A model generated the notes under the pieces. That model did not search any database. It had not been told where the DNA came from and saw nothing but the letters and a program-made list of their open reading frames with translations. Shown here piece after piece: positions 2,890-62,106 of a stretch of 64,000 nt of DNA. The position numbers and the translations under genes are program-made. Each line of letters opens with the position of its first letter. Position 1 is the stretch's first letter. The stretch comes from Tubulanus polymorphus. Its lineage: Eukaryota > Animalia > Nemertea. The stretch is from contig NC_134031.1 of NCBI RefSeq assembly GCF_964204645.1, forward strand, positions 9,982,001-10,046,000, read 5' to 3'.

Positions 2890-3249
2890 TTAAATTGATT
2901 TTAGAAGTTCAATGATTTATATTATGTATTATTTCAATCACACTTTACTAACACTTTTAATGTTTCAAAATCTAACTCACACAAATATAAATATTGAAAT
3001 AATGTTGTAAATATATCTATATATCTATTCTATAAGAGCTTACACTTTTAAATGTTATTCATGTATATGATTATTTTAAGAGTAATAGGGATAATAGGCT
3101 TTCAGGTTAAAGGTTGAAGGGGCGAGTGAGTAAAAATGAAAAACATGAAAATAATAACAATTTCTACTTGAATTAGGAGTGAAACTCATAAAAATGAAAA
3201 ATAAATTCGAGCGTGTGAGAATTTATTTTTCATTTTTATTAGTTTCGCG
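2890..3249. repeat. Polinton A terminal inverted repeat remnant with truncated terminal hairpin
   Basis: Matches the B right TIR (taaattgattttagaagttcaatg...agtaataggg...); contains the palindrome gaaactcataaaaatgaaaaataaattc-gagcgtgtga-gaatttatttttcatttttattagtttc; the outer arm is missing. Confidence 0.8.
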
Positions 3250-3821
3250 AGCCTCATAATACGTTAATTTCTGGCGTAACAAACTTATTTTATATTAAAT
3301 TCATTAGAAACTATTCATAAAAACTATTTTGATAATATAGTATAATTTTGTCCAACGTATGAATTTAATCAAACTTATGACAGAAATATAACTAGAAATA
3401 ATAAATTTATTGTATTAAATCCTAAAACAGTTAATGAAAATTTAGATAATTGTATTAATATAGCAATTGATATTTATAAAGGATCAAATACATTATTCAC
3501 TATACATGATTGTGCAAATTTACATGATTCAAAAATTAGAGAGAGTGAATTATGTTATTTAGCTTTCTCTGGAAGACATTTTGGGATAACAACTTGGGTT
3601 TTAAATCAAAAATATAATTCAATTGTTAACGATTTTAGGGGAATATTAGATTTTTAGTATTATTCTACAATAAAGATAGGAAATCGATGAAAAATGCGCT
3701 TGAGGAAAGTGATATTATTCCACATGATTTACACAATGAATATATGGATAAATTGAAAAATAATAAAAGATCAAAATTACTATTTCGATTACAACACCCA
3801 TTTAAATATGAATTTATTTAA
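3249..3821 (+). pseudogene. Packaging ATPase (A32/FtsK-like) pseudogene
   Basis: Translates to EPHNTLISGVTN...DCANLHDSKIRESELCYLAFSGRHFGITTWVLNQKY, homologous to 38040-38651; Walker A CGKT is lost and there are frameshifts. Confidence 0.85.
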
Positions 3822-3909
3822 ACTCAACTAGCTTGTTAATCTAGTATATTTTAGTCACATTCTAGTTAAATTTTAGTTATTGGCAGTTGAAATAAAAACA
3901 ACAATATTT

Positions 3910-6745
3910 GAAAGGCTGAATCCAAGAACATGTCTATCGCACTTTTGAGCCCAAACGTCTACTTTTACTTAGTAGTCACTTGAGAACAATAAGCGATTAA
4001 CGATATCAGCTACTTTTCCAGTAGTATACATTTCAAAACAGTCACTCTGAAATAGTATTCCTTTCAATTCGGTTGGTTTTCTATAGTGGCTGTTTCGAAG
4101 AGTCTACTATTGAAAAGTGACCATTTTGAAACATCTGGTTTCGATAGTGCACACTAGCAGTAGAGGTGACTGTAAAACCACCCGCCTGTTAACAGTGACT
4201 TTGTGATTGTAACTCCTACCATAGCAGCTACTCTCAAAACACATCGTTTCTAAAAGTCATCTATTGAAAAGTAACCATTTTGAGATCGCTTGCCAGATTC
4301 CCTGTTATAAATACACGGTAGCAACATATGCATCAAATTTGCAGTGATACGTGACAATATAAACATACGGAAAACTCTACTCACTCTATAGTTTGGGGTA
4401 TAGTTCCATTAAGAGTGACTCAGTTAAGATCCGAAGATATTGTAGATACTCTTTGAGGATGTGAAATGTAATGAGCGATTCCCAACTCTAACCAATAAAA
4501 GTCGAGATTGGAATTAAATTTGTTCACAAATTGTCAATAGTTATGTAGTTTTAAGATAAATCGAAATTTCCTTCTTTTCATGAATTCAATTTGAACAATA
4601 AAGCTTTTTTTCAAGCATAGGTCTGCATTTATTTTTGATTTAAATTCTTAGATTAAAAGCACAATTATGAATTCAGGCTAACCTCTCATTATTGAAATGG
4701 TGGTTTATTTTCAACGGGGGCCTGGTTGTCTTTGCATCTTAAATTAAGATGTGCATTTCGGAGTGTCCGAATTTCCATGAATCCTAATTTCGCAAAATCA
4801 TTGATTTTTTTAAAACAAAATATGCTTTATCCATGTGGATTATAAAAATTCTAAGCGAGCCCAAATTTGATCGAATTTAATAGAAGAAACTTTGTATGGT
4901 ATTCAAGATATCATTTGGATTACGGTAACAGCCTTTGGTGATCGTCCCTGGGGCCATGAATGAAGAATTCCGCAAAAGAATTTTAAATATGATAAAATTT
5001 GTTATGGTGAAACCGCAACGTTTCGACTGTTGGCTAACAGCCATCAGCAGGTAGAATTTAGGCATTCCTAGTGAGAAGGGCTTTTAGTCAGATGGCTGTC
5101 AGTTAACAGCCGAAACGTTGTGGTTCAACTTTAATAAATTTCATGATACAAAATTCTATTGTGGAATTTCTTCATTTGTCTACAGTTAACACGGTTTAGA
5201 GTATTTTATTCGACTTCTTCGGGTCCTGTAGCCGTTTAGATCGAAAATTATTTACTTTTCGGCACAGAAGGGATATACAACCGAGTTTGTCGCTATGAGA
5301 GGGATTCCCTGTATATCTGCACCTTAAAGCGGTACCCTTGTTGGTTCTAGCCCGCATTCGCTTCCAAATTCAAGTATTGGTAACGTTGGTTTACAATAAT
5401 TTGAGAAAAAGAGTATAGTTGGAGAAAACTGACGATTATCTTATAATTCAGCGATTCATTGGTTCATCGATTCGTAAAAATAAAATATAGTCTCATAGAG
5501 ATATTGCGGTGCTAAGTTTATTACTATTAAGAGAGGTGATTACTTTTGGTTCAGGTGGTCAGTGCAGTTAGTTCATTGGTTATTCAATCACTGTCTAGTT
5601 AGCCAGTGTAATTGACCTGCTGACCGATAGCTGCTGCTGAGTTTTTGATAACCTATATAAACAATTTACTCAACAAAGTAGGAAAGTATGTGAAACTGAA
5701 ATTACAGCCTATCACATTTCTTTCACTTCTTAAGCCAAACGAAGTTTTCACTATCAAATGAAATTGCTGATTTCAAAATTACGTGAACATCTCAACACTC
5801 AACTCTTATACGCTAATCCTTTGATCTTTCATAATACTTGGTAATTTCATTTCAACCAAACTATATAACTACGAAATAAGATTTTGATTAGGGTATCACT
5901 TCTAGCAAGCGATAAAACGATATTCAAGAACGAACAAGCAGAGAACCGCGTGACAAAGTGAACATCACATGGATTACTTAAAAATCATTTGTATCGAAAT
6001 AAACAATAAATTCAAGGTTAATTAAGTATTTTAGATACATTTTTTTCGTAATTCATTTTCTCAACATATAATTTTATTTGTATATTCCTCTCTCATATAC
6101 CCTTAAAAACAAATTAAGCCTAAAAGACAAATTTATTTTTTGTCTTTCTTTTCTACAAAATCAAAGATTTATGAACGCACCAGAATGTTTTATAATCGCA
6201 AATCTTAAAATTCTAAAAATTCTAGGACTGGCACTATATTTTCGTATTAATGGATTTAATCCATGATGATATAATTTAGGGGATTCTCAGCAACTCAAAA
6301 ACTTTGCGTATCACTGCAAATCTAAATTAAAACAGATGCTGCTATTTTGAACAGGAAATTACCATGCCATCTCAAAATGGTCACTTTTCAATAGTTGACT
6401 TTTAGAAACGATGTGTTTTAAGAGTAGCTGTTATGGTAAGAGTTACTATCACAAAGTCACTGTTGACAGACGGGTGGTTTTACAGTCACCTCTACTGCTA
6501 GTGTGCACTATCGAAACCAGATGTTTTAATATGGTCACTTTTCAATAGTAGACTCTTCGAAACAGCCACTATAGAAAACCAACCGAAATGAAAGGAATGC
6601 TACTTCAGAGTGACTGTTTTGAAAGGTATACTACTGGAAAAGTAGCTGATATCGTTAATTGCTTATTGTTCTCAAGTGGCTACTAAGTAAAAGTAGACGT
6701 TTGGGCTCAAAATTGCGATAGACATGTTCTTGGATTCAGCCTTTC
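3910..6745. mobile_element. Non-autonomous DNA transposon with ~375-bp TIRs and 4-bp ATTT TSD (Sola-like by TSD only)
   Basis: GAAAGGCTGAATCCAAGAACATG... (3910-~4286) is inverted at ~6369-6745; ATTT at 3906-3909 and 6746-6749; removal restores the local acaatattt(t/c)aactagcttg repeat; no transposase ORF. Confidence 0.8.
4958..5178. repeat. Imperfect ~220-bp foldback, possibly Penelope pLTR-derived
   Basis: Arms ...caacgtttcgactgttggctaacagccatc / gatggctgtcagttaacagccgaaacgttg...; resembles the stemII-GAAAC half of PLE hammerheads. Confidence 0.5.
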
Positions 6746-6965
6746 ATTTTAACTAGCTTGTTAATCTAGCATATTTTTAGTTACATTCTAGTTGAATTCT
6801 AGTTATTGGTAGATGAAATAAACATCAAATAAAATTCAACAAAAAATAAATAAAAACAACAATATTTCAACTAGCTTGTTAATCTAGAATATTTTTAGTT
6901 ACATTCTAGTTAAATTCTAGTTGAATTCTAGTTGCAACAGCACAACTAATTTGTTTCTTTTATAA

Positions 6966-7529
6966 ATGGGAGGTGAAAAGAAAATAAAATCTAAAAATAG
7001 TGATGTTCCAATTGAAAAAACTTTAGATGATTTAGGAATAACAGAAACAAAATTAGCGTCAGATAATAATGGTGCTACTAATAATGATATTACTACAAAC
7101 AATAATTATGAATATTATCTTTATTGCAAACATCAATTAGAAATATTAATAGCATCTGGGAAATGAAAAAGTTTTATTAGTAAAAATTTAACTTATAATG
7201 AATTAGATACAATGAAATCAGATGAAATTATTTGAGATTCATGAAACTGCGAGAATAGCTAGAATTAATGATGCGATGTCAGAAAATGTTATAGTAAATT
7301 ATGTAATTATGTGCTGCCAATTCAAGATGAAAATAGATTATATTCCGATTTAAAAAATGACTATTTAGTTATGACCGAATTAAATAAATGGATTGGATAT
7401 TTATCATTTCAATTAGGTGGATTAATGACGCTATTATCAACTGCAGTTATAACATTTTCAAATATTGAAAGTAAAAATTTGTCTACAATAAATGAGCGAA
7501 GTGGAAGAGGTGAAAGAATTAACTGTTAA
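6966..7529 (+). pseudogene. Polinton conserved hypothetical (homolog of 40127-40729), frameshifted
   Basis: IEKTLDDLGI, YEYYLYCKH and DENRLYSDLKNDYLVMTEL are shared with the 200-aa ORF of B. Confidence 0.85.
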
Positions 7530-7861
7530 GAAAAAACCGAGAACTCAGAAACAAATTGAATGGTCTCGGCAATTAGGAATTTAATCACAGGAATATAAAA
7601 AAGCTGTAAATGAAAAAATGAATAATGAAAATGTTTATAATAATGGTGAATATATTGTTATTTCTACTCCTTCTGATAATAGAATATTTGGTAAATATTT
7701 ATATTTTGCAAATGGATTTGTAATTGTATTCATTTTTATTGGGTGTAGTTGGTATAAGAAATCAAATAAAATTTATGATATTAATAATTCTGAAACTACT
7801 GCTATTAAAAATGAAAATACTTCTGAAATTCCAAAATTCACAATTAAAAAAAATGGATTAA
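7492..7861 (+). pseudogene. Polinton small TM protein (homolog of 39784-40134), internal stop
   Basis: KKKPRTQKQIEWSRQLG vs KKKVRSEKQIKWARELG; hydrophobic segment. Confidence 0.7.
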
Positions 7862-8354
7862 TATTTAGAAAAAAAGCAAAAAATAATTTCATTTTAATTA
7901 ATTGAATATCCCACTACTTTTGTAGTTCAAGTATAAATGAACTAATTTATTGCCGCAGACTTCACATTCAGCCGCGGTCTTCAAACAGTAATTTTAACAA
8001 TAGCCCATTTTCCTCATCAAATCATATTACCGATACACAGGAAATTTACTACTTTAGATTTTAAAAGCACTGTCGAGCCGTAAACATCGACGAATCGACG
8101 TGTATCACTACATCGTCGTTCCGGGGATCAGCTGCGAGTTTCTCCTCATCATGAGAATCAAATCGAGTACAAATTAATTCATTACTACCAGTGATTTGGC
8201 TGCGGGTTTCAAGGAGTTAGTTTAACAATACCTATTTTTCTTTACCAAATTAACCGTGTATTTACTAAGATAAATCTTTAGTGTACCGGGGGTCGTAGGC
8301 CTAAACTAAACACGCCGAAGAGATATAGCGGAGAAAAGCTGTTATGTCAACGAG

Positions 8355-8552
8355 AGTAATAGGGGTAATGGGCTTTCAGATCAAAGGTCGAAGGGTCGAG
8401 CTCGTAAAAAAATGAAAATAACAATAATGTACAGTTGAATTAGTCGCGCACACTCCTAATTCAACTGTAAATTATTGTTATTTTCATTTTTTACTCACTC
8501 GCCCCTTCAACCTTTAACCTGAAAGCCCATTACCCCTATTACTCTTAAAGTA

Positions 8553-8606
<54 letters not shown>

Positions 8607-8894
8607 TATTTTAAGAGTAATAGGGGTTTATATATATATATATAAACATAATTTACATGAATAACATATAAATTGATAGATTATTCAATATAAAAGTGTT
8701 AGTAAAGTGTTAGTAAAAAAGTAACGAGTAATTAACGAGCTCTTATAGAATAGATATATAGATATATTTTAAACATTATTTCAATATTTATATTTGTATA
8801 AAGTTAGATTTAGATTTTTAAACATTAAAAGTGTTAGTAAAGTGTGATTGAAATAATACATGATATAAATCATTGAACTTCTAAAATCAATTTA
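8355..8894 (+). repeat. Polinton B left TIR (terminal hairpin 8355-8543, (TA)n tract)
   Basis: Reverse complement of 43111-43633. Confidence 0.93.
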
Positions 8895-8914
8895 AAAAAA
8901 AATTTAGTATTAAA

Positions 8915-11900
8915 ATGGAAGCAAATAAGTACTACTGCCCAACATGTAATATCAATATAGATAAATCCCAAAAATCAAGACACAATAAAACTAAAACACA
9001 TTTAGAGAATAAATTGAAACTAGAATATAAAGATGATATATTAGAAACTAAATTAGATGAATTAAAGAACGAAAAAGAAACATACAAATGTGATACATGT
9101 AATCAATCATTCAGTGATAAAAGATATTATGATGAACATTTAAAATCTAAAAGTCATATTAGAAATATGAATAATGATATTTTAGGTGAAGATTATTTTG
9201 ATAATGACAATGATATGATAAGAAACAGAAGACAATTAAAAGCATAAAAAATAAATTAAACAATAAAAGACCATACATGGAAGATGTTAGAAAATATATT
9301 AATTTATTGGATAATAAAAAAGATATAGAGATAACCGAAGCATTTAAAAGTGATATTGGCCCAGCAGCTATCGAGTTTAAATTTCATAAAGGAAAAACGT
9401 TAGAAGAAAATAAAAAACATTTAGAAAATATGAAAGAAATAATAAAAATAATAACTGATGTTGAATATTCTAAAATAAGTATTTCATCAAAAGTTAAATT
9501 CATAAAATCTGAAGATAAACCAATATATAATATAAATTCTTATTCACAACATATTATATCTAAACAACATATAGATGATAAATTAGATAAATGTTATAAT
9601 GAAGTAAAAACTAAAATAGAAGAGAAATATTTTGAAGGATCTGGTTTAATATTTGATGAAATAATATTTATGACTTTACATGTTTATAACACAAAAAATA
9701 ATAAGTTAACTAAATCAAAACCAATAGATGAAAATAATGTATCATATTATAAAGAACAAGATATTGAAGCATCAAGTTATATTAAACCACCATTTAAAAC
9801 TAATGCTGTAATAAATGTACAAAATGAAGATGATAAATGTTTTCTATGGACAATAATTAGTTGTTTACATCCTGCAACTTATAATATTTGTAGATTAACT
9901 CATTATAAACCATTTGAAAATAATTATAAGATAGATAAGTATCCTGTTATAATTAAAAACATCCCAAAAATAGAAAGAGATAATAATTTGAGAATAAATG
10001 TATTTGATTTAATCAAATTACCAAATACAAAAGGTAACAACATAAAACATTATACATTAGAACCTTTATATCTATCAAAAGATTATGATTCAAATGATGT
10101 TATAGATATACTATATTATGAGAATCATTATATGTGGATTAACAAATCGATTTATTTTTTAAATCAGAAAATGATCACCATAAAATATATCTTTGTAGAA
10201 AATGTTTACATAGATTCAGTAATGAAAGTACATTATTTAATCATAAACAATTATGTGAAAATCATGATTATTGTAAATTAGTTTTACCAAATGAAAAGGA
10301 TAGAATATTAGAATTCAAAAAATATGATTACAAAAATAAAGTTCCATTTGTCATATATGGAGATTTTGAATCATTAAATAAGGAACTAACTGATCAAGAT
10401 AGAAAAGAAATACATTATAAAAGAAAGAAATTAAATTCTAATGAAAATGATTTTTCAGATGAACCACCAATAATAACAAATACTATTAAAAAGATTCATC
10501 AATCAGCTGCAGCTTTCGGGTTATATATTAAATCTGATTATCCAGAACTATTTAAAAGTGAATATTATCATTACAGAAATGAAAATGTTATCAATCATTT
10601 TTGTGACTTATTAATTGAATATGAAATAAAATTTAATGAAAAGTTAAATAAAAATATAGAAATTATAATGACAGAAGAAGATAAAGAAGAATTTGCGTTT
10701 GCAGATAAATGTTATTATTGTGAAAAGATATTTAATTATAAAGATAAAAAAGTAAGAGACCATGATCATTTGAATGGAAAGTTTAGAGGCGCTGCACATG
10801 AGAATTGTAACTGACAAGCTAAGAAAATTAACTTTGTACCAGTTATATTTCATAATCTATCAGGATATGATGCACATTTATTCATCAAACAGTTATGCCA
10901 TAAAATAGAAGAAATCAATAATGAAATAGAAAGATTAAATTCAAATAGATCAAAAGATAAAATACCAACTTATAAATTTAGAATGTTAGCTAAAACATCT
11001 GAGAATTATATATCATTCCAATTTGGTTGCCTAAGATTTATAGATTCATATAGATTTTTAAATAGTTCATTAGATAACTTATCAAAATCATTAGTTGATG
11101 ATGAATTAAAAATATTAAAGCAACACTACCCAAATAATGATGATTTTCAATTAATGAGATATAAAGGCGCAATTCCATATTCATTTTATAAATCACATAA
11201 TGATTTTAACATAACTGAATTATTAAAAGAACAATTCTATGATGAATTAAAAAATGAATATGTTAAAGATGAAGTATATAATAGAACATTGAATATTTGG
11301 AATCATTTTAGAATGAAAAATCATGGGCAATTAGTAGATTTATATCTAAAATCAGATACATGACGCAGTGGATATAATGAAGATATATTGAGAGAATATG
11401 AAGCTGCAGTTAGGGGTAGGGGTACCCGAATGACCCGAAAGTAGGTCAAATTTTTTTTGGACATTTTGGGGGCCTCTAACGACCCCAGAATAGCTAGATC
11501 ATCAGAAACAAGCTGAATCATCATATTTTAGTGTAGGGAAGCGTATTAGACCGTCTAGAAGTTTGAGAACCCAATATTTTTTGAAAAAATTTTTTTTTTC
11601 GAAATAAAAGTCGCAAAATCTCAGGATCTGGTTTTTAGAGAAGTCGCATGGAAAGAGTTCCGATATATTCGAAAGGTTTAGAGATGTAAACCTAAAATAT
11701 TTTAACATTGATCCTTGTCATTGTTATTCATCACCAGGTTTAACATGGGATTGTGGATTGAAATTTACAGATATAAAAATGGATTTGTTAACAAATATAG
11801 ATCAATTATTATTATTTGAAAAATCTATAAGAGGAGGTATTTCAGGTGTATTAGGGGATAGATATTTCAATGTAAATAATAACCCTGGATATAAGTTATT

Positions 11901-19254: not shown

Positions 19255-19802
19255 CTAATGTCTATTTATTAATTGATGAGACCTGTTTTTCTGGGATATT
19301 TTGCTTACTTTTTGGGGTACATACCTCATTTATGTCTTAACAGAATGACAAAAATCGCGGACAACAACGGAATATCCGATTTATTTCCAGTTCTGTACCA
19401 ATTAGATGGATTGGCAAAAAGACTCCTTAAGTCCAATTGAATGAGAGAGAAAATCCTCCATTTTGTCAAATTTCTTGAATTTTTACATTGTCACCATGCC
19501 TACGAAATGAAGTTATTTTTCTTGTGGGGTCTCAACAACTAAATCAGGGTGGCGTAGGCATGGTAACAATGTTCAAATCCAAGAAATTTGACAAAATGGA
19601 GGATTTTCTCTCTCATTCAACTGGACTTAAGGAGTCTTTTTGCCAATCCATCTAATTGGTACAGAACTGGAAATATATCGGATATTCAGTTGATGTCCGC
19701 GATTTTTGGCATTCTGTTAAGACATAAATGAGGTATGTACCCCAAAAAGTAAGCAAAATATCCAAGAAAAACAGGTCTCATCAATTAATAAATAGACATT
19801 AG
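19255..19802. mobile_element. Foldback MITE with ~250-bp inverted arms
   Basis: ctaatgtctatttattaattgatgagacctg...catgcctacg / cgtaggcatg...caggtctcatcaattaataaatagacattag; ~46-nt spacer. Confidence 0.85.
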
Positions 19803-23488: not shown

Positions 23489-26400
23489 AGGTAACGTGGG
23501 GTGACTTGGCCATATGTCTTTAAAATCAGATATTCTTAATCACTTGATTGCATAATCATTCCCCCAATTATTATGTTTGATAGTATGGACCATAGGTTAT
23601 CTTGTACCTGTCATTAGTTAGCCAAAGTGCTATGGATGATTTGTATAATCAGGAGTAAACGGGAATTATTGTGTGACCAAGTCACCCCATACAACATGGG
23701 TGACTTGGTCAGTGCATGGGGTGAATTGGTCATATTAGCTATAATACATGTATATGACAACCCATGGCCCTACCCTCAGGAGAAGTTTTATTCTGACCGG
23801 TGTAAAATGTTTTTACCCACCGGTACCTTGGTCAAAAGATAAAAAGGATGGTTTTGCGATTGCAGAGATCTCCTATAAGCTTAGTAGAAGTGTTCCGCAA
23901 TTACTTCTGCAATCATAGGTTACTTGTGGACCACTGACCATTATACTGAACAAGATCATGCTGCGACTAAATTCATTGTTGTTAATGACTAGTAGGCTTG
24001 GGTAGTAAATGGGTCTGTTTCTGGATCCCTTGATTAGACAGTCACATGCAGAAAATCCTGTTTTCCGATATAATACAACGGTATGCTAGAATAAAAACGC
24101 TACAAATAGGGTGTAATGTTTGTGGTGTTTTCATTCTAGCATAATAACTTCAGGAAACCTTGATAACTCTGACGTTACAGGGTTAAATCCCATGCTCTAT
24201 AAAAACCATAGTCTGAACTGAAAATGACTCTCTCTTGAATAAAAGTAATGAAGGCTGATGGAATGTAATCTTTCAAACAGAACCTTGCTATATTTTTTTA
24301 TATCTGACAGAATACCTCATAAATCTATGCTATATACATGCATTATCAACTTTTCACATAAGTACAGTTGTGTGTTATGCCAGAATTTATTCAAATCTAT
24401 TCATAGACAATCTTATTCAAGAACACTAAACAATCAAATTTTAGTAAAATTCTAACGATCAACAAAACATGAATAACGGCAACTAATTGCTATATAACGA
24501 TAAAACACAAGTACGTAGAACAATATTATTCACCATACTCATCACACCATTTCGAAAAACATTTCTCTATGAGGGCCAGCTTTTCTGATGTCACACCTAC
24601 AAATCGTGAACCAACATTGATGATATCTGACTCAGAGATGGAACAGAGAATATCTTCCTTACAGGTTTCCAGAATATCATCCTTAGGTGGTGACGAGAAC
24701 CTATTCACCCCATGCCATCGTTTATACTTTAAGAATACAGTTGGAGAAATTGCTGGACTTGATTTCAACACTGTCGTGACATACCACTTTTGATTATAGA
24801 CTGCAATAACAAATTTTCCAATTTCATACTCTCTAGCTATCATGTTCTCCATTTGGCCAATCATATCGCTATCATTTTCCAGTTGACCGATGTCGTCATC
24901 ACTATCATCATCAATTTCCGGTTCTTCTTCATTACCATCTTCAGAATCAGACACATTTTCCTTGTTTCCGTTCACTTTTTTTCTTATTTTTGAGTTTGGT
25001 TTCTTTTTTTTAGCTCTCTTCTGTTCTTTCTTTTGTTCTTCCTGTTCGAGCCGCTCAACAACGTCATTTACTGTGAGACATTCAGCAAATTTCCTGTCTA
25101 GTCTTTTTCTCTTCTTCGGAGGCTCAGGAGCAGAATACTTGAAATGATCAAGCAATGCCTTCTCAAGACTAGATTTTGGACTGAGGACATCAGAGTTTTG
25201 CGATCTTTCCGGACGAGGGGTGATGACGTTGCTACCAGGTGGCTTACTATGGACTTCAGCAGTTACAGTGATTGTACTTGGGCCTTCTCTGAATTGTGTA
25301 CTCGAGCGTAGAAGGTCTCTCGGTTGAACGGATATATTCTCACGGGATCTTGAGGCATCAGTTCTGGTTATCTCGTTGTCGTTAGTTACAGTTTCAGTGG
25401 GAGTTTCAGGCAAAGCGCAAGATGTCTTGAGTAGTTCATCGCCTATCTTGGTTTTATCAAGCGGGTATATTCCACATTTCTCAAATGCGTTGATTGCATT
25501 CATTCGCGACATACAACTAGATTGGTGGACTTTATTCAGGAGGGAAGGGAATGTAGCTTTATCTACAGATTTAAACCTAGTTGATACGTAGTGTTCATTT
25601 AGAACCTTCCGCCAACTTTGTTTTAGCGCCTTATATACCCCTACATCAAGTGGTTGAAGAATACTACTAGTGTGCGCTGGTATGCAAAAGATGATCACAT
25701 CATTCTGCATAGCCAGGTTCAGCACATCCAAATTGATGTGAGAATTGTGTCCATCATATAACAGTAACTTTTTTCCAGGTATGGTTTTGGTCTCTTCTAG
25801 AAAAACTTTCTTAAACCATTCAGAAAATTGAGGAGTTTCCATCCATCCAGAGTCTGATACGTTATATCTCGCTCGCTCAGGCCCACCAGTGCACCAAGAC
25901 TCATACAAGTTCTTTGCTTTGTAGACAACATAAGGTGCTAGAAAATTACCATCAGCAGAACAACATTCAACAACTGTGTACATAGTTTTGGTACTAGAAC
26001 CAACCGTTACGTGTGGGTTTTTATCACCTCGTCGACATAGGACTTTTTTCGAGCCAATGTCAGTTTGAAAGCCTGTTTCATCCATATTGAAGATATGACC
26101 TGGACTATGCAGCAGCTGGTTTTCATCTAACAGTTTTTCTAATTTCATAAAGAAATCATCCACTATTTTCTGAGAACATGCTTCGGCACGATTGAGAGGG
26201 AAATTCTGTGCAATCCGACGCGATATTTTAGACTTATGGCGCTCTTCAAATAGTCTCATCCAATCCAACCCTGGTAGATCGCCTTTAAATTGGTTTTTTC
26301 TTCCTAGGCCTCTTATAAAATCTCTCACGATCAATCTTATATCATTGCGATCTAAACCAAAGCCCCAATCGCTGAGGATTTGCAACGAATGAACAACCAA

Positions 26401-27694
26401 CTCCTCTTCTTCCGCTGTGAGAACTGTCTGTCCTCCTGGTTTTTTTATTTCTTCGCCACGTCTGTATGCCTCCAGATGTCTACGTAAAGAAGTACGACTA
26501 ACATGGAATAATTCTGCTGCTTTCTTTTTTGAGAGACCATCTTCGCAGGCTTGAATGGCCGCCTGCATATCACCAGCATCATAGCAATTGTATGGGCGCC
26601 CACCAACTTTTTTAACATAATCTCGTGGCATCCCTGAAAATAAAGACGAAAAATACTTAGATAATAAGGTATTTTGAATGTAGGTAATAATCCCACCGGT
26701 AAATATCCCCCCGGTAAAAATCCGACATGGGAAAAATCCCCCCCCCCCCCAGATCAGTTTTCTATCAAACTTAAGTATAAAACCTAAATTAAAACAGATA
26801 ATAGTTTTTACAATACTACTTAGGGTACGTAGATATTTCACCATTACAAACTAGATTTCTTTATAGAAATTATCAAAACTACGATAATGTGATTTTTATG
26901 CATGTTGGTAGCTAAAAGTCACAGAATAATGTCATTTCTATGCACGTAGCTTGGTAAAAGTCACAGATTATCCAAGGTGAATATTGTGAAAAACGCCATG
27001 GAAAATGTGAAATTTTTGAAAACTATTCAAGTTTTTCAACATAAGAATATAGAAGTATTTTTATTGAATTTTGCTGTGAAATCAAATTTGGGGGGGGGGG
27101 TTACCTGTTTACCTGTTACCAGGTATTGTACTACAAAAACAAATTTGTGATAGTATACAGTAGGCTAGATCCCAGTAGACCTACCGATGATTGCACCTTA
27201 TCAGCTTATAAGGTTTAGCACATCAGTTATTATCCAAGAGTTTATACATAGACCACTTGTTATATAGGTACAAGCGTGGGGTGACATGGCCACCGTGACC
27301 AAGTCACCCCAAAACAAGTAATTTCTTGATTACATTAAAGTATAAAATACCTTGCAGAAGATTCAATTTCTAAATTATACGTCACTAACTAACTAATTAT
27401 AATGACACATAACAATTCAGTTCCAGTGCTCATGATTACAAGTTTTTCCTACCTTAATTCCTTGACTTCACAGCGTGAGTTTGCAGTCCGCCATTTTGAA
27501 TATCTTCAAGTCACATGACTGGTCATGTGACTTCTTGACAATTATCAATTTATAATACAGTACGATCATGACAATAAAACTATATCACAAAGAAAATAAT
27601 AAGCACAGTTTGATTTTTTGGGTCGTGCCTTCTTAATTTTTTATTGATTATGGTGGCCAAATCACCCCAATGGCCAAGTCACCCCACGTTACCT
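23489..27694 (-). mobile_element. pogo-superfamily DNA transposon, 4206 bp, 24-bp TIRs, TA TSD
   Basis: AGGTAACGTGGGGTGACTTGGCCA at both ends, flanked by TA; subterminal (g/a)ccaagtcacccc repeats. Confidence 0.95.
24526..26631 (-). CDS. pogo-type DD35D transposase (HTH_psq + CENP-B HTH + DDE_1), open frame
   Basis: Likely start MPRDYVKK; FNMDETG, LLYDGHNSH, QPLD with 35 residues between the second and third Asp. Confidence 0.93.
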   Translation of the reverse strand: MPRDYVKKVGGRPYNCYDAGDMQAAIQACEDGLSKKKAAELFHVSRTSLRRHLEAYRRGEEIKKPGGQTVLTAEEEELVVHSLQILSDWGFGLDRNDIRLIVRDFIRGLGRKNQFKGDLPGLDWMRLFEERHKSKISRRIAQNFPLNRAEACSQKIVDDFFMKLEKLLDENQLLHSPGHIFNMDETGFQTDIGSKKVLCRRGDKNPHVTVGSSTKTMYTVVECCSADGNFLAPYVVYKAKNLYESWCTGGPERARYNVSDSGWMETPQFSEWFKKVFLEETKTIPGKKLLLYDGHNSHINLDVLNLAMQNDVIIFCIPAHTSSILQPLDVGVYKALKQSWRKVLNEHYVSTRFKSVDKATFPSLLNKVHQSSCMSRMNAINAFEKCGIYPLDKTKIGDELLKTSCALPETPTETVTNDNEITRTDASRSRENISVQPRDLLRSSTQFREGPSTITVTAEVHSKPPGSNVITPRPERSQNSDVLSPKSSLEKALLDHFKYSAPEPPKKRKRLDRKFAECLTVNDVVERLEQEEQKKEQKRAKKKKPNSKIRKKVNGNKENVSDSEDGNEEEPEIDDDSDDDIGQLENDSDMIGQMENMIAREYEIGKFVIAVYNQKWYVTTVLKSSPAISPTVFLKYKRWHGVNRFSSPPKDDILETCKEDILCSISESDIINVGSRFVGVTSEKLALIEKCFSKWCDEYGE

Positions 27695-28449: not shown

Positions 28450-29613
28450 ATGAGTGGGAGTTATATCAATCCTTCTAAGAATCATAGAATATCTAATGCT
28501 ATTAAAGCAGAAAGATCTCATCATATAATTACTCATAACCCTTCTAATATTAATCCCGATGAAACTTTATATGTTAGAATTCCTCGATTAACCCAAAATA
28601 CTTTTTATGTTCCAAATAGCATTTATTTATCAGCCGATATAAAAGTAATCGGTAATAATAATAATTATGTTGTTGATAATGTTGGAAGATATTTGATTAA
28701 AAAATTAACTATAAAGATTGGTCCAGAAACAGTTTTCTCATTAGATGATTATAATTTATTTATGCATTATAAAGATTTATGGTTAACTAAAGAAAATAGA
28801 AATAATATGATATTTCAAGGAATCCAATCAGAAAACCAAAATAAAATAAGATCAGAAACACATAATGCAATATTAACTAATGCTATAGATAAATTGATAA
28901 AAAGTATATATGGAAGCAAATATAAAATTCCATTAGACTTTGAATTGATAAATAATAATGCGCCTTTATATAAATACGCAATTCAAGAAGACGTTATATT
29001 CGAAATAACATTTGCTCCTGTTAATGAAATTGTAATATCTAGCGTTAATAAAGATATGAGTTATCAATTATCGAATATATGTTTAGAATATGATACAGTA
29101 ACTGATGAAAATATTGCAAGTATAATTCAAACTAAATACAATCAAGGATTTTCATTATTATATGATTATATTGATAAATTTAAAACCGTAACTATTAATG
29201 CAAATGATGAAATTATTAATGAGAATATTAACTTCCCAAGAAGATCTATTAAAGGTATATTAATATATTTTACCATTGCAGCATATACTAATGGCGCAAT
29301 AAATGTTGATAATTATTATAATCCTGAAATAACAAAAGTAGAAATAACTATCGAAGGAATAGCAAATAAAATATTTTGTCAAGGAATGAGAATGATTGAT
29401 CAATGGCCAGAAATTAGAAAACATTTTATGATTGAAAAAGTAAAATCATCTGAAAATTGTAATATTAATCAAATTGATTATTATACCGGCAATAAATATG
29501 CATTATGGTTAGATTTTAGAACAACAGAGGATAATTCATTACATGGTTCTGGAAAAAAACTACAGAACTCTAAAGATGGAATTCAATTATTCATGACAAA
29601 GAATAAAGGAATC
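28450..29613 (+). pseudogene. Major capsid protein (double jelly roll/hexon-like), N-terminal part
   Basis: HNPSNINPDETLYVRIP, LSNICLEYD, PRRSIKGIL, YNPEITKVEITIEG, YALWLDFRT..DNSLHGSG; interrupted by an insertion at ~29614. Confidence 0.88.
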
Positions 29614-31404
29614 AACAAGAAAATTAATTTTAGAAAATTATTAGACGCCTGGGAAAATAATGTAGGATTTCTGAGCTAAGCTAATGTGGAATTGCAAATT
29701 TGAAATCGAAGTTTTAAGAAATTTGGGGAATGATGAGATTTGGCGATTGGGTAGATGATACAGGTCTTCGACTCTAGTAGTGGTTTAAATTTTTTTATTG
29801 AAAATTCTCAATAATTGATCGCGAACTTGCGACCGACTTCATTTACTTATGCCTCTAAGCTGGTCTACAACTTCATTGCCTCCATGGATGAAGAAAGAGC
29901 TCTTCTGATGTCTGCTTCATCATGACTTCGAGCATATCGTGTGGCCTAGCCAGCCGGCCCGGTCCCCGGGCCCGGGCCACGGGTTTGGCCGTCACTCGAT
30001 ATCCTAGAGTCTTGAGTCTGGGTGGGTTGAAGTAGACATTGTCATTTAAAATAACATGCTTATGTTGTTCTGTATGAATTACCCGTGTGTCATGTATGTT
30101 GTATTAATTTATTTTAAAATTTGTATTTATTGAATTTGGGAATTTTATCCCGGAATATCAATGTAATAAGGATCAATAAAGAATTGAATTGAATTGTCAC
30201 CTTATACACATGCCATCAGAGGACATGGAGCCGTATATGACAGCTATGCTATTATAAATTCCTAATCTCACGAAACTTGCATACTCCTAATATCAAACAT
30301 ATTTTCTAAAACGTTTGAATATTGAAATTATATGTTTACACATTTTTATATTGACCGCTTGTAGCCGCTGATGAAATTCACGCCGGCCCTACACACATCG
30401 TAGATAGCTTTGTCATTCCACCGGTATGCCCACGTCAGGGTCTGACTTTTATATCAGACTTCCGCATCGTGTATACATCCGCCATTTAACCGAATAATCC
30501 GATTTACTTATCATTTCTATTTATGCCTGCCGCTTCTGATATAATCATACATCCTTTACTACTACAATACGTCTTCTAATGATATTCAATGCAATATTAC
30601 AATTTTGTTCAAAAATTGGTATTTACGAGGAATACTTACCTGGGAAAATACACTATAGCCATATTGCTTTTGGCTAGGCAGATAACGCCCGAATCGACTT
30701 TTGGTAGGGGCGCCGTAACATAGCGCCATCTGGCGAGACGCCATCATCTTTTTGCGCCAATAATCCCTCAATCGCATGGGGGACGGCTGGGTGGGAATAC
30801 CCGTGTATTTTCCCAGGTAAGTATTCCTCGTAAATACCAATTTTTGAACAAAATTGTAATATTTACTTCGAATACATTCCCTGGGAAAATACACTATAGC
30901 CAGAATCCCAAAGAATGGAGGAGGGAGGCGACCAAAAGTCGATTTAAATTCTCTACACTTACACTCACCCTAAAACTCTCTGCAGAAAACCGCAACAAAC
31001 CCCAGGTGAGCCAGTGGGAAACCAAAAATCAGGGAGCTACCGTGCTGCTTCCTTTTCAGTTCCTAACTGTACTGGTAGATAATAACATGCCTATTATGAC
31101 CCTGTTACGTTTGAGTCGAAAAAAGGAAATCAAACAACCCGGTGTCAACTGACTCCCGGATACCTTAGTAAGGCACTGACTGCCATTACCTCGATATTAA
31201 CCTAAACCAGTAGGTAAAAAACTTAAACTCTAGACGCAGCCTTGCCCAGGCTATATAAATGAAATCATGATTCATGTCTAAACTTAATACCTATAACAAA
31301 AGGGACCCTTACCACTAACTGTCTTAAGGTAACCTAGGCCCTGTAAAAGATGCCCACAACTTATATACATCAACTTTCTTATAGCTGAATACAGAAGAAA
31401 CCCT

Positions 31405-32855
31405 TTAATCCCCAGGACCTGGTTTAAAAAGGTCTAACTGGGCCCGATGTTTTTTGGGTTTTTGTACGCTTATTCGTTGTGCAGTAACAATTGGACCCAA
31501 CGTGGACAGTGAGCCTAACTGTCCAGAAACGTCCTTCAAATAAAATGACGAGAAGGTAGATGGAGACGTCCAGAAGGCTGAACGACAAACCTGTTCCAAG
31601 GAAGCCCCGTGAATAATGACCAGGATGTGGCTAATGCCCTCACCTGATGAGAATGTATCCCGAGCGGAGCCTGGGCCCCCTGAAAATGCAGAGTTTCTTT
31701 TATTAAAGATACAATCCATCTAGCGATTGTGTCCCTTGAGATATCTCTCTTATCCCCTTGTCGGAGAGGAATAAAGAGCCTCTCCCTATCTTGTCTGTGG
31801 GGAAGTGTCCTCTCTAGGTACTCCTTTCAAGCTCTTACTGGACAGAGCGACATATCAGGAAGATCGTGAGATACCCTATGCGTCAAAGCCTCGATCTTCC
31901 AAGATCTGGCTGCTACGGAAGCCTTTTGATTCTTGGCAATGAAACTAAGACCAGGCCTTAAAATGACAAACCTATCTTGTGGACCAAAGGAAATATGACC
32001 CGGACGCATCGATAAAGCATGAACCTCCGAACGCCTCGCGGCCATTGCTAAGAACAGTAAGAACACCGTTTTCTTAGATAAGTCTGACAGGGTAGTATTG
32101 CGGATAGGCTCGAAGGGAGTGATCATAAGTGCTCTAAGAACCACCGTTAAGTCCCATGGCGGGATATCTGAAACCTGTTTGGGTCTCTTAACCCCAAAAC
32201 CTGATATCAATTGAGCTATTTTCACATCCTCCGTCACTACAGGGACGCCCGCTGAACGAAAAGTATTCCCCATTGCTGATATGTAGCCTTTAATGGTTAT
32301 AACCTGTCTATTCTTCTCTTCGAACAGGAAATATAAAAAATCTATTAACTCTGACACAGAGGGGTGGAGAGAATCCACCGCTCTCCTATTACACCAATCG
32401 GAGTAACATTCCCATTTGGAAGCGTACAATGCTCCGGTAGAGGGACGTTTGGATTCCACGATAAATCTGGCTGCCCCCGAAGAAATTCCTTGGTTTGAAA
32501 GCTGTCGCTTGACAGTGGTCAGGCGTGTAGATTCAATTGGAATTGATTTGGGTGTAACTTGAACCGTCCCTGGGACAGTAACCCGGGGTAATTGGGCAGA
32601 GTGCGAGGGAAGTCCACCAGTAGATGCAGGAGTCTGACGAACCATGTCTGAGTCGGCCAACAGGGAGCCACTAAGACCACTTGACAGTTGACTGCCCCCT
32701 CTATCTTCTCCAACACTCGATTGAGTAGGCGAGTGGGGGGAAAGGCATAAGCCAGCAGGTTGTCCCAACTCAGAGATAGAGCGTCCACCCCCATGCCAAG
32801 TCGTCTTGAAATGGGGACACAAACACCGGACACATCGTGTTGAAGCGAGTGGCAA
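31405..32855 (-). pseudogene. DIRS tyrosine recombinase (frameshifted)
   Basis: RPSTGALYASKW, PPWDLTVVL, AARRSEVHAL, LCPVRA, FWTSPSTFSSFYL. Confidence 0.88.
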
Positions 32856-35956: not shown

Positions 35957-36669
35957 GTTAAACCCTAAAATAAGCTGAAATGAAGGGTTAATTATTGATA
36001 CGATTTTTAGTACAGATTATTAATTTTCGTGAATGATGAGACGGAAATCAATTACGTTGAATGATAATTATTAAATATATAAGGCGGGAGGAGCCGCTAA
36101 GAAAACAGCACGGCGCTCCCGCGAAACCGGAAGTAGAAAACCGGTGGCAAAATGTTGAAATGCGCATAAATTAAAAACGATCTCACCCGAAGTTCGACTT
36201 CTATTCCGAGATCAATCACTCTTATGTCTGATTCTTATATCAATTAGAACGGATGTCCGATCCAACACGAAGAATTTTAACCGATTTACGAGCACTGCCG
36301 AAACACGTTCTCTAGAGAACAAGCGCCAAGCAAAAAGATGATGGCGTCTCGCCAGATGGCGCCATGTTACGGCGCCCCTACCAAAAGTCGATTCGGGCGT
36401 TATCTGCCTAGCCAAAAGCAATATGGCTATAGTGTATTTTCCCAGGGAATGTATTCGAAGTAAATATAACATTTCGACGTTCAAATATAGGTCATTATAT
36501 AATCACAGGAAGCCATTCTACATCTACGTCAATAATATTTTGCCAGCTTGTTTGTGTACATATAAACCTGTGACGTTTTGCACATCGATTTACGGCTGTC
36601 GTTTGTAATATGACGCTGAATGGTTAACGTTGTTTAGGTTTCATAATGGTAACGTTTTATAAGGCGTCA

Positions 36670-38039: not shown

Positions 38040-38651
38040 TTATTTTATAAATTTATATTCATATGGAAATTGTAGTCTCAGTAATAATTTTGAACCTTTA
38101 TTATTCTTTAATTTATTCATATATTCATCATGTAATTCAGTACGTATAATTTGATTTTCTTCCAATGATTGTTGCATAGATTTTTTATCTTTGTTATAAA
38201 ATAAAACTAGAAATCTTATATTCTCCCTAAAGTCTTTAACAATTGAAATATATTTTTGATTTAAAACCCATGTTGTTATCCCAAAATGTCTTCCAGAGAA
38301 AGCTAAATAACATAACTCACTTTCTCTCACTTTTGAATCATGTAAATTTGCGCAATCATCTACAATGAATAATGTATTTGATCCTTTATAAGTATCAATT
38401 GCTATTTTTATACAATTATCTAAATTTTCTTTTACTGTTTTAGGATCTAATATAATAAACTTTTTTATCTTAACTATATCCCTATTATATGTTTTATTCA
38501 TTTCATAAGTAGGACAGAATAATATTATATTATCAAAATGATTCTTATAAATAGTTTCTAACAAATCTAATATGAAATGTGTTTTACCACAATTGGTTAC
38601 TCCAGTTATTAACATATTATGTGGTTCAAATATAAATAAATCTTTATTCAT
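38040..38651 (-). CDS. A32/FtsK-like DNA packaging ATPase
   Basis: Walker A GVTNCGKT, Walker B FIVDD, GRHFGIT..LNQ motif. Confidence 0.93.
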   Translation of the reverse strand: MNKDLFIFEPHNMLITGVTNCGKTHFILDLLETIYKNHFDNIILFCPTYEMNKTYNRDIVKIKKFIILDPKTVKENLDNCIKIAIDTYKGSNTLFIVDDCANLHDSKVRESELCYLAFSGRHFGITTWVLNQKYISIVKDFRENIRFLVLFYNKDKKSMQQSLEENQIIRTELHDEYMNKLKNNKGSKLLLRLQFPYEYKFIK

Positions 38652-39729
38652 TTATTCTTTTAATTTTACTAGATAAAATCCATTCATTAAATTTATCATC
38701 ATATCCTTTATATTTCACCAAAGAATACTTCTTTCCTTTAAGAGTTTTTGTTTTCAATACTTTTTCTATTTTGTATTCTATTTCATCTGGATTTGGTACA
38801 AGTGATAATTCTTGTTCATAGAAATAACCTAATATTTCTTCATCTTTTAGATCTTCTAATTTATGAACAAAAGGTTTAGTTAATATTATCTTTTTAATCT
38901 TGAATATTTCTTCTGTAAAAGTTGGGGTATAACCTTTATAAAAGGTTTTTCTATATTTAGATATTCTAACGTGTTGTCCTATTTTAAATTTAGGTTCTCC
39001 AAAATCATGTGTAACAAACGCTCCATATAAATTATTCCAAACTATTTCTGAATTATCTTCTTTTCTAGCTTGTATAGGTTTCATATTTATAGAACTATGT
39101 TTAGAATTATTATAACCTTTCACTATATCATCTAATACATCGATATATTTATATGTTTCATTAGCAGTAAAGTATTTCCACATTCTAGATTTCAATGTTT
39201 TATTAAATCTTTCTATAATAGATGCTTTTTTATCTGAATGTGTTGAAAAATATTCTACATCGTTATCAGATAATAGTTTTTTAAAATATTTGTTATAGAA
39301 TTCCTTACCTTCATCAAATTGTATCTTATCTGGAACAGCTTCTTTAAATATTGATCTAAAAGCATTTGTCACTTCTATACCAGTTTTATTTTTGATTGGA
39401 ATTGACCATGCGTATCTTCTGAATATGTCTATAACATTTAATATCCAGAAATATCCTTTGTTGTATTCTTCTAAGTTCTTCATGTCAATTAAATCTGCTT
39501 GCCATTGTTGATCGATATATGAAACCATAACTTTTCTTGTTAAATAAGTTTTATCCATTTTCTTATGGATTTGATATGTTGGTTGATTTTGTAACCATGA
39601 TTTCAATTCACTATATTTTATATTTTCATTATCAGATTTAATTTTATTCCATAATTCTGAAACGTTAGAATATGATACTACACTTTCTGGGTTATAATAT
39701 AACTCTCTTAAATATTGTTCTTTTTTCAT
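38644..39729 (-). CDS. rve (retroviral-like) integrase with C-terminal chromo-like domain
   Basis: YYNP, WQADLID, QFDEGKEF, IERFNKTLK, YKIEKVLK...LVKYKGYDDKFNEWI. Confidence 0.95.
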   Translation of the reverse strand: MKKEQYLRELYYNPESVVSYSNVSELWNKIKSDNENIKYSELKSWLQNQPTYQIHKKMDKTYLTRKVMVSYIDQQWQADLIDMKNLEEYNKGYFWILNVIDIFRRYAWSIPIKNKTGIEVTNAFRSIFKEAVPDKIQFDEGKEFYNKYFKKLLSDNDVEYFSTHSDKKASIIERFNKTLKSRMWKYFTANETYKYIDVLDDIVKGYNNSKHSSINMKPIQARKEDNSEIVWNNLYGAFVTHDFGEPKFKIGQHVRISKYRKTFYKGYTPTFTEEIFKIKKIILTKPFVHKLEDLKDEEILGYFYEQELSLVPNPDEIEYKIEKVLKTKTLKGKKYSLVKYKGYDDKFNEWILSSKIKRINE

Positions 39730-39783
39730 CTTATTTTAATCCATTAATAATAATTTAGATTTAGTTTCAATGACTTTATGATT

Positions 39784-42420: not shown

Positions 42421-43089
42421 CTAACCACTGATTAAAACCTCAGAATGCGGTTGATTCTGTGAAATACTATTCCATAATTCAACAAATGTCTTTGCTTTAT
42501 CCAGTTGATCTAAATATAACTGTAAATCTAGTTTATTAGATTTAATTATGTTTTCCTTCTTTTCTAAAGGCCTTAAATTTTTCCAACCCCAAATAAGTTT
42601 TTTATTGTATTCATCGTTCATGTTAAATTTAGATATTGGTAACACATGATCAATATGGTAATAATCCCCATAATTATCTTTATTCATTTTATCATCGAAT
42701 TGAAATATAATCCATGATTTTAAGAATTCATCTGAACAACCCAATAAATTAGATAGTGTTTCTGAATGTGTTTCTTTGTTGAATAATTGTGTTAATCTAG
42801 TCCTTAAGCATTGTTTCAATCTAAAATTAAGATCTGTTTGATATCTTTCTCTCATATATTCTGCCATATAATAATTATAATGTTCTATATTATCTTCTCG
42901 ATATTATTTGGTATATAGTTTAGTGCAAGTTTTACAGCAATATTGAAAACCATCTTTGCTAATCTTACGCTTATTGAATTCTGTTATAGCTAATTTATCT
43001 AATTCACACTTAGAACACTTCTTGTAGTATATATTTATGACGCCAGTGTTATTTGTAATATTGATAATTTGTGGTTGTTCTGATTCCAT
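42421..43089 (-). pseudogene. HNH endonuclease of giant-virus type, one frameshift
   Basis: CSKC...CKTC finger; LGCSDEFLKSW..QFDDKM..NYG..HIDHVLP...WKNLRPL..KEN..KSNK. Confidence 0.85.
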
Positions 43090-43110
43090 TTATTATACAT
43101 ATTTTTTTAC

Positions 43111-43349
43111 TAAATTGATTTTAGAAGTTCAATGATTTATATATGAATTATTTCAATCACACTTTACTAACACTTTTAATGTTTAAAAATCTAACTCATA
43201 CAAATATAAATATTGAAATAATGTTGTAAATATATCGATATATCTATTCTATAAGAGCTCGTTAATTACTCGTTACTTTTTTACTAACACTCTACTCACA
43301 CTTTTATATTGAATAATCTATCAATTTATATTTTATTCATGTAAATTAT

Positions 43350-43438
<89 letters not shown>

Positions 43439-43633
43439 TATTTTAAGAGTAATAGGGGTAATGGGCTTTCAGGTTAAAGGTTGAAGGGGCGAGTGAGTAA
43501 AAAATGAAAATAACAATAATTTACAGTTGAATTAGAGTGTGCGCGACTAATTCAACTGTAAATTATTGTTATTTTCATTTTTTACTCACTTCCCCTTCGA
43601 CCTTTGATCTGAAAGCCCATTACCCCTATTACT
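43111..43633 (-). repeat. Polinton B right TIR (terminal hairpin 43448-43633)
   Basis: Reverse complement of 8355-8894. Confidence 0.93.
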
Positions 43634-44672
43634 AACGAGGTATCAAAATAAAATAATATATTACTTTATTCGGCCGCCATCCTCGCTTGCCAGGTATCAC
43701 TCCCGAACTCGCTTCCACCAGCCCCCTGGCCTCACGAAGCGTGATTTCATTACTGGCGCTGTTGCGCATGACGTCATATATCGATTTGCGAAATACTTCC
43801 TTGTTCGGTAAAACGTTCGCTGATTGGTCTATTTAACGGGAAAACCAACAGAAGTCTACTGTCGGTTTGTTACAAGCGCTGTGATTGGTACGACCGGATT
43901 CTGGTCGGCTAGTAACGACTCCAACGACTCGTGAGGTCAAGGAGTTCGGGAAACAGCTTTAGCGTAGTGGGTTCGAATCCCTTGACGGGTGAAGATTTTC
44001 GGCCGCGGGCTTCAACCTCTATATCAATACCATAAATACTCTATATTTCCTACAGTACATACCGATCATTGTCAAATGCACAAGGTATTTACTAAATACA
44101 AGTATATAACACACTCCTATCCGTATGCTTGACTCACACTTGACATTCGGAGTAAGCCTTCGCTGTGGGGGAAAGGAGATCGTTCGCTGTGTCGCTTGAA
44201 GATTTTATCGAGTTTTATGCGACCTTAAGGATTTAGGCGTACCGGTACTGAGCTTAACTGTCTCAAACAAACACAATATAATTGTTGCGTTTATTAACGG
44301 ACTCATTGGATTGAACTTCAAAACAAAATTTACGATATTTAGGAGGGTTGTTATTCAATAGGCCTACGACCTATCCGTCCGGATGTTACGCCTACGTATA
44401 TACATAAGCCTACACAGGCTCGTAGCCTCTACTAGGTTAAAGCTAAGTTCACTGTCAATGAGGAATCAGATTTATTAAAATGCATGTTAATTAGTGATTA
44501 ACTGGTTCTGACTTGCAACGATCAATCACAATTATCAATTTTATTGGCAAAAATGAAGATTTTTTTTTAAAAATTTCGTCTGAGCAGACATCTTTATAAG
44601 CCAGACTTTTCATCTGAGTTTTTTTGATTATAAATGAAACTGGTATTTCATTAATTGCTAATGACTTCGAGC

Positions 44673-61984: not shown

Positions 61985-62106
61985 AGTAATAGGGAATAAG
62001 TTGTTTCACATCAAAGGTTGAACGGTCGGAAAATAAATTCGAGTGTGCGAGAATTTATTTTTCCACAGTTCGACCTTTGGTATGAAACAACTTACTCCCT
62101 ATTACT
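61985..62106. repeat. Polinton C terminal hairpin (122 nt)
   Basis: agtaatagggaataagttgtttca...gagtgtgcga...tgaaacaacttactccctattact. Confidence 0.88.

Follow-up and report, generated by a model that had tools for sequence, protein, structure and literature searches.

Long imperfect terminal hairpins with paired arm changes and a single orientation in a polymerase-bearing Polinton family of Tubulanus polymorphus

Animal Polintons (Mavericks) of the adintovirus type, as portrayed in the available sections of PMC8097293 and 10.1101/697771, encode a protein-primed family B polymerase (pPolB) with a terminal-protein and a vOTU domain, an rve integrase and an A32 ATPase, and have terminal repeats starting with AG and a 6-bp target duplication, all of which they have in common with the locus described here. 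The terminal-protein (LF/PAD-type) and OTU folds of Polinton-type polymerases have been described (10.1101/2024.03.18.585575, in part). In the standard Polinton model the left repeat pairs with the right repeat, and excision and the start of replication have never been shown. The ends of animal Polintons in these sources read (AGT)2 or (AG)3, whereas the end analysed here reads AGTAAT, and its first 122-189 nt or more fold on themselves. The strings 'hairpin' and 'palindrom' are absent from the accessible portions of PMC8097293, 10.1101/697771, 10.1101/2023.08.22.554363, 10.1101/2024.03.18.585575 and PMC12721341; in the excerpts at hand, PMC11296320 mentions hairpins for poxviruses only, and 10.64898/2026.10.13.758929 mentions a palindromic repeat in one figure legend. 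No paper on hairpins at animal Polinton ends appeared among the titles listed for Polinton-related terms.

Palindromic ends as a general idea are already known in the virophage/PLV group from a preprint of July 2026 (10.64898/2026.07.28.741278), whose available part reports terminal-repeat palindromes in Halocafeteria virophage subtypes 1, 2, 5 and 6 and PLV subtype 4, mostly with non-pPolB genes, proposes hairpin priming, and cites Kapitonov and Jurka 2006 for an origin of palindromes by accidental annealing, so that this older paper may itself describe ends of this kind. Like the ends studied here, those of the Halocafeteria seosinensis elements have a palindrome in the terminal repeat, an adjoining target duplication, rve-mediated integration and a proposed hairpin role; unlike them, they belong to a protist, have a single stated length of 52 nt and mostly lack pPolB, whereas the element here has palindromes of 122-189 nt or more that are imperfect, keep their bubbles, vary in pairs and stand in one orientation, together with a pPolB that has a terminal-protein domain. 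A first-pass annotation of this DNA had known of no description of such a hairpin- or cruciform-dependent step for Polintons, which holds in part only: the preprint proposes hairpin priming for virophages and PLVs, and for pPolB-bearing animal Polintons no such report was found in the portions of the literature covered.

Three further systems offer comparisons, each described in part of a source. The telomeres of Streptomyces (PMC5449611) also have a protein-primed end and palindromes in the first ~180 nt, and their 3' tip can pair with an internal copy, so that fold-back extension repairs the tip before priming; they differ in having several short hairpins, Tap/Tpg, no B-family polymerase and no integration, which makes the likeness one of analogy, not homology. 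Parvovirus hairpins (PMC8242256) have a similar length and mismatch bubbles, and some termini occur in one form, but they require an HUH Rep nickase, which was not found in the ORFs scanned here, and a single-stranded genome. The telomeres of poxviruses (PMC8956199) are AT-rich imperfect hairpins with mismatches, but they are covalently closed and occur as two isomers, whereas here the host junction has both arms in duplex form and a single orientation prevails.

The window analysed, a 64-kb stretch of genomic DNA, contains three related Polintons in pieces (A, B and C), and their features are listed in Table 1. Element B spans 8355 to 43633, and its flanks are directly joined, as an empty site, in 1897 reads of the same species. 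Its insertion target is a high-copy host repeat (8320-8354 / 43634-43665), with an empty-site depth of about 2100. The AGTAATAGGG motif occurs five times on the plus strand and three times on the minus strand, every one at Polinton ends. Nested in B are a DIRS-like retrotransposon (30620-36466, with a reverse transcriptase match, a recombinase-like ORF and terminal repeats) and, likewise, a DDE_1 transposase gene (24526-26844), and B also harbours a foldback element (19255-19802; 548 nt, 91% palindromic) unrelated in sequence to the Polinton ends. Element C has no left terminal repeat within the window and shows a recent internal tandem duplication (49071-53089 vs 55210-58754, 97% identity).

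Table 1. Positions of the terminal structures and predicted genes in the window
Feature	Position	Strand	Remarks
Left target-site duplication of B, 6 bp	8349..8354	+	identical hexamer at 43634-43639
B left terminal inverted repeat, 570 nt	8355..8923	+	91% identity to 43081-43633
B left terminal palindrome, 189 nt	8355..8543	+	outer arm 8355-8443, apex 8444-8455, inner arm 8456-8543
One-off extra fold-back round (AT)n run	8532..8627	.	~30 nt of inner junction duplicated; third AGTAATAGGG at 8616
pPolB N-terminal part (gene frameshifted)	9214..10143	+	predicted terminal-protein domain (LF/PAD fold) and vOTU domain
Endonuclease VII-like (HNH) domain in pPolB	10668..10811	+	PF02945 E 7.4e-05, just below curated cut-off
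Major capsid protein-like ORF	28450..29679	+	Pfam Capsid_N E 0.011, weak
Packaging ATPase (A32 type)	38040..38651	-	PF04665 E 8.1e-12
rve integrase with chromodomain	38644..39735	-	PF00665 E 9.8e-08, PF00385
Stand-alone HNH-like ORF by right end	42421..42903	-	HNH_4 E 0.056, weak
B right terminal palindrome, 186 nt	43448..43633	+	inner arm 43448-43535, then apex, outer arm 43547-43633
Right target-site duplication of B	43634..43639	+	copy of 8349..8354
C right terminal palindrome, 122 nt	61985..62106	+	short subfamily, arm sequence different
A right end	3081..3251	+	complete inner arm, internal bulge 3177-3181, nested inner hairpin 3181-3246

The first-pass annotation had described the Polinton ends as long self-complementary hairpins, and its end coordinates and quoted motifs were correct. 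We compared the DNA folding of each end with 200 dinucleotide shuffles. The results showed that B-left folds at -71.3 kcal/mol (z -20.3), B-right at -87.8 kcal/mol (z -25.2) and C at -39.7 kcal/mol (z -13.4), and that none of the 200 shuffles approached the native folds of these three complete ends. Folding at the A end is confined to its innermost part, 3178-3249 (z -9.1), so the claim that every end folds back applies to the three complete ends and, at A, to this part only. The outer arm of A is severed exactly at the outer side of the internal bulge (3247-3251), and the A end runs directly into an ATPase fragment that belongs to a further copy, itself a decayed piece of a Polinton (about 3249-7900). 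Counted in columns, the two arms are identical at 80/89 positions in B-left, 83/88 in B-right and 49/56 in C, with perfect pairing over the terminal 25 bp at both B ends. In the same zone, the duplex between the left and right repeats reaches -207 kcal/mol, as against -71 to -88 for the local folds.

Two asymmetries interrupt the B-left stem. At arm position 35 the outer arm has C and the inner arm T in all three complete ends, which agrees with the shared outer/inner asymmetry noticed earlier; a larger mismatch bubble at arm positions 42-52 had been missed. It is present in B-left and has been lost from B-right. Among parvoviruses, the left end of MVM has a comparable bubble. Recurrent CpG decay was rejected as the cause of mismatch 35, since it would strike both arms, yet the direction is fixed. 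The apex was found to be less uniform than had been claimed: 10-11 of its 12 letters match, but the apex of B is offset from that of A and C and sits at the internal bulge of A, while C is closed by the same apex stem as A. The match is about what the 86% background identity of the B and C repeats leads one to expect, so apex conservation alone is no evidence of selection. The hairpin has a modular build: a GAGTG-type motif is found at a bubble near arm position 44, again at A's internal bulge and once more at the apex.

As had been proposed, B and C differ on both arms together: seven sites in the first 40 nt are changed on both sides. Of the nine distinct mismatches of transition type, seven read as G-T on the 3'-terminal strand (one-sided binomial about 0.09), a weak bias which agrees with 3'-strand fold-back and is suggestive only. 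The extra fold-back at 8532-8627, found in B-left and not in B-right, shows template switching to have acted recently on an end of this kind.

We then analysed raw reads from one sequencing run labelled as the same species (X4), covering roughly 12% of it (1934 Mb); 6615 of these reads aligned on the C end and 7517 on the right end of B. The depth directly outside C is 5, from which the family has roughly several hundred ends, judged from this one flank. The inner arm is covered at a depth of 1949-2371 and the outer arm at 2356-2548, about equally, indicating that the ends of this high-copy family normally carry the palindrome; at the apex, the B type has a depth of 655-872 and the C/A type one of about 1990. 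At least eight pairs of partner sites vary at similar frequency (35/24, 38/34, 21/23, 11/19, 29/19, 29/43, 36/32 and 35/35%) among the best 40 of 95 and the best 40 of 57 variant rows, frequencies that pool subfamilies and both arms and are not counts of independent events; several other variants have no partner among the matches listed. Three of these pairs are located between the kept mismatch at position 35 and the apex, suggesting that arm-to-arm copying was patchy and not one fresh duplication. Together with the B versus C sites, these pairs support the view that the arms change together beyond one recent fold-back, a step that pairs the two arms being supported as the simplest cause. Since independent drift of the two arms cannot give joint changes, and a fresh duplication after B and C split would have erased the asymmetry, copying between the arms would appear to have been both patchy and repeated.

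The position-35 asymmetry is kept in about 88% of reads, and the inner arm lacks it in 11.5%. The B-left form of the second bubble was found in about 80% of reads (518/632 at one site), so B-right is a converted exception. Hairpin length varies symmetrically on both arms, with 122-nt, 186-189-nt, intermediate (the joint 43510->43572) and longer, A-type forms. The long A type is supported by loose ends of 959 and 732 reads, and the A end in the window is a cut remnant of this hairpin type, which is common in the reads. A further end type, not in the window, has inner (445 reads) and outer (1138 reads) continuations that are complementary by eye. Three mismatches are private to the C copy of the window; most reads have paired bases at these sites. 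Molecule ends did not pile up, as those of free or folded ends would, in either read alignment, at the C end or at the right end of B.

All four ends in the window have the same orientation, as had been stated, and the reads were used to look for flip/flop isomers. The outer letter of position 35 was found on the inner arm in 267/2330 reads, while the reverse change on the outer arm was not seen among the matches listed, whose lowest share was about 11%. Behind the outer tip, 1328 loose ends agreed with each other at only 0.34, and their majority sequence was not that of the inner flank. Loose ends sited at the inner junction were absent from the best 6 of 111 rows, where a 50:50 flip/flop would have given some 800 reads in one such class. 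At least four joints have apex letters between the arms, all in the orientation of the window. A single flip of exact symmetry, 61996->62094, still joined to the inner flank, was seen in 5 reads from 3 starts and represents about one locus or a library artefact. Opposite-strand joints near the apex (e.g. 62028->62063, 24 reads) were not taken for flips, since alignments of this kind can also come from the outer arms of other subfamilies. A regular 50:50 flip/flop is thus excluded, and rare flips may occur.

Predicted proteins were consistent with an animal Polinton. Sequence of pPolB was found in A, B and C, and PF03175 (protein-primed family B polymerase) matched with E 3.3e-06 in C and 0.0025 in B. 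We modelled the ORF at 9214-10143 unaltered on 69 aligned rows (pLDDT 84.7). In the predicted structure, residues 38-159 follow the strand-helix order of PRD1-like terminal proteins, and the candidate linking residue Ser143, present in at least 90% of the 69 rows, lies in the Gly-flanked loop that connects helix 2 with strand 4. In a structural comparison with 48161 chains, LF/PAD domains from Y-family polymerases scored best (Z 9.0, rmsd 2.8, 103 aligned; 4ir1, also LF/PAD, Z 8.9), followed by viral OTU proteases (Z 7.7); these Z values are middling, and both expected folds top the list in the expected order. Cys209 and His305 of the vOTU domain are invariant in 9 rows, and the N-terminal model agrees with adintovirus/MELD polymerases. 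The model therefore predicts that the B polymerase keeps a terminal-protein domain followed by a vOTU domain with its active-site residues. No match to a maturation protease was found among the ORFs scanned. AT-rich clusters of short repeats and palindromes lie 3' of the ATPase gene (3820-3870 and 6750-6940 in the window), and clusters of the same type occur in the closest metagenomic relatives (L001 3033-3105, L002 3557-3633 and L004 9082-9359); they are possibly an internal cis element.

Relatives were also searched for similar ends. Terminus DNA patterns gave 0 matches in metagenome contigs, the apex pattern gave 0 matches, and capsid and polymerase queries gave 0 loci in viral contigs, where three terminus-pattern matches were put down to chance because none had an inverted repeat. 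The integrase alignment yielded 101 loci (80 + 4 + 17), nearly all on short contigs that stop before an element end, and neither a BLASTN match to the palindrome nor a terminal fold-back was found among them, a negative that, given such contigs, does not speak for absence. Two of them, L087 and L088, with 39-41% integrase identity, have terminal repeats with short internal stems only (L087 133-295, L088 273-603); they are distant, apparently complete Polinton-like elements in bacterial MAG bins, with no fold-back of the tip on an inner copy. Two adjacent hairpins at L097 (607-935 and 940-1393), beside a Polinton-like region of an Endozoicomonas MAG contig, were rejected as element ends and look like inserted host MITEs.

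The fold-back ends are real and family-wide, and the standard Polinton model does not explain them; we infer their function, for which origin or end repair fits best among the roles of origin, excision and end repair that had been put forward. A closed, flipping telomere of the pox or AAV type was not supported: both arms form a duplex at the junction, and it is disfavoured because the priming domains, terminal-protein and vOTU, are kept and the ends are found in nearly one orientation. The 6-bp duplication stands directly outside a full duplex palindrome, which means that the DNA entered the chromosome open-ended and with both arms in place.

By analogy with Streptomyces, we tentatively prefer, at a little less than an even chance, a reading in which fold-back of the 3' strand is used together with protein priming. 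Each end holds an inverted internal copy of its own terminus, and the arms change in concert. A single-stranded 3' end, set free by excision or strand displacement, would pair with the inner arm, and a frayed or shortened tip would be re-extended with the inner arm as template. Re-extension and repair of stem mismatches could copy changes from arm to arm in patches. The terminal protein would then prime at the tip, and synthesis round the apex would remake the palindrome in the same orientation with no nick, while the mismatch bubbles might let the polymerase or integrase tell the true end from the inner copy. On this view the fold-back, instead of sealing the telomere, would protect the tip and would offer protein-primed replication a local origin as well as a template for repair. 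This 3'-strand fold-back scheme is the simplest one that needs no nickase. Several points speak against it: free or folded ends were not seen in the reads; a 3' end that is paired throughout and has template ahead of it acts as a primer, so it ought to be extended past the inner AGT and close the end; the panhandle of left and right repeats (-207 kcal/mol) would do the same job; template switching alone perfects palindromes, a one-off fold-back being adjacent in B-left; and the second bubble has gone from B-right. A variant that we consider possible but rather unlikely is a hybrid end, combining protein priming with a bubbled hairpin or cruciform, at which the polymerase, possibly through its Endonuclease VII-like domain, would excise or re-start the genome unflipped.

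Imperfect palindromes can be perfected by template switching without any function. A neutral quasi-palindrome, that is, one old inherited fold-back between whose arms template switching copies changes, with no role in the life cycle, is unlikely. The extra fold-back of B-left shows that such events occur here, the apex match is not above background, a bubble has been lost from B-right, and the inner arm is without the position-35 asymmetry in 11.5% of reads. Long palindromes tend to be unstable, yet the arms stand at about 1:1 in a high-copy family, so that loss of the palindrome is rare; mismatch 35 persists amid seven both-arm changes, and length changes are symmetric, all of which argues against neutrality.

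Still less likely is self-priming as in parvoviruses, with the folded 3' tip priming the second strand and asymmetric resolution restoring one orientation. In its favour are the perfectly paired terminal 25 bp of both B ends and the flipped junction 61996->62094; some parvovirus termini occur in a single form only (PMC8242256, in part), and the model has been proposed for the Halocafeteria virophages/PLVs (10.64898/2026.07.28.741278, available part). In that preprint, however, the palindromes go mostly with non-pPolB elements. No HUH/Rep Pfam match was found in sets of 24 and 14 scanned ORFs (six common) from these decayed element copies, the predicted terminal-protein and vOTU domains are retained, and symmetric resolution predicts the 50:50 flip/flop that the reads exclude.

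Cruciform excision appears doubtful. Integrated palindromes would extrude, the Endonuclease VII-like domain would cut their base, and the nicked hairpin ends would be filled in unflipped. The base of the palindrome lies exactly at the host junction, PF02945 matched in B and the segment was found in 5/5 long homologues tested, an unligated cut would presumably preserve orientation, and the mode of Polinton excision is not settled in the literature covered. Nevertheless, the PF02945 match in B is below the Pfam cut-off and no solved relative of the segment was found by sequence, a similar motif occurs in the distant locus L084, and pPolBs are known to carry HNH and VSR insertions unconnected with hairpins (10.1101/2023.08.22.554363, in part). 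Mismatch bubbles impede extrusion, and no rows of solo-hairpin footprints occurred in the best 6 of 111 loose ends. Very improbable is a reading in which the bubbles take no part in priming and instead mark the free end of the genome for packaging or for the binding of a protein: vaccinia hairpin mismatches do act in maturation and not in DNA synthesis (PMC8956199, in part), an ATPase and a capsid-like gene are present and a GAGTG-type motif lies at each bubble and the apex, but an open-ended duplex linear genome has no bubbles unless its end melts, and the element has no known particle.

What is new here, for the one species covered, is an animal Polinton that carries pPolB and ends in long, imperfect hairpins of a single orientation whose arms evolve in concert. 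They extend palindromic ends from the virophages of protists to an element that keeps its predicted terminal protein, and because such a hairpin-ended element keeps it, the hairpins do not simply replace protein priming. With natural end variants in the hundreds, whose arms change together while bubbles and orientation persist, the family amounts to a ready mutational scan of the end signal. If the hybrid end were true, it would supply a missing link that joins DNA viruses with protein priming to those with hairpin ends, and would offer a first handle on how Polintons leave the chromosome.
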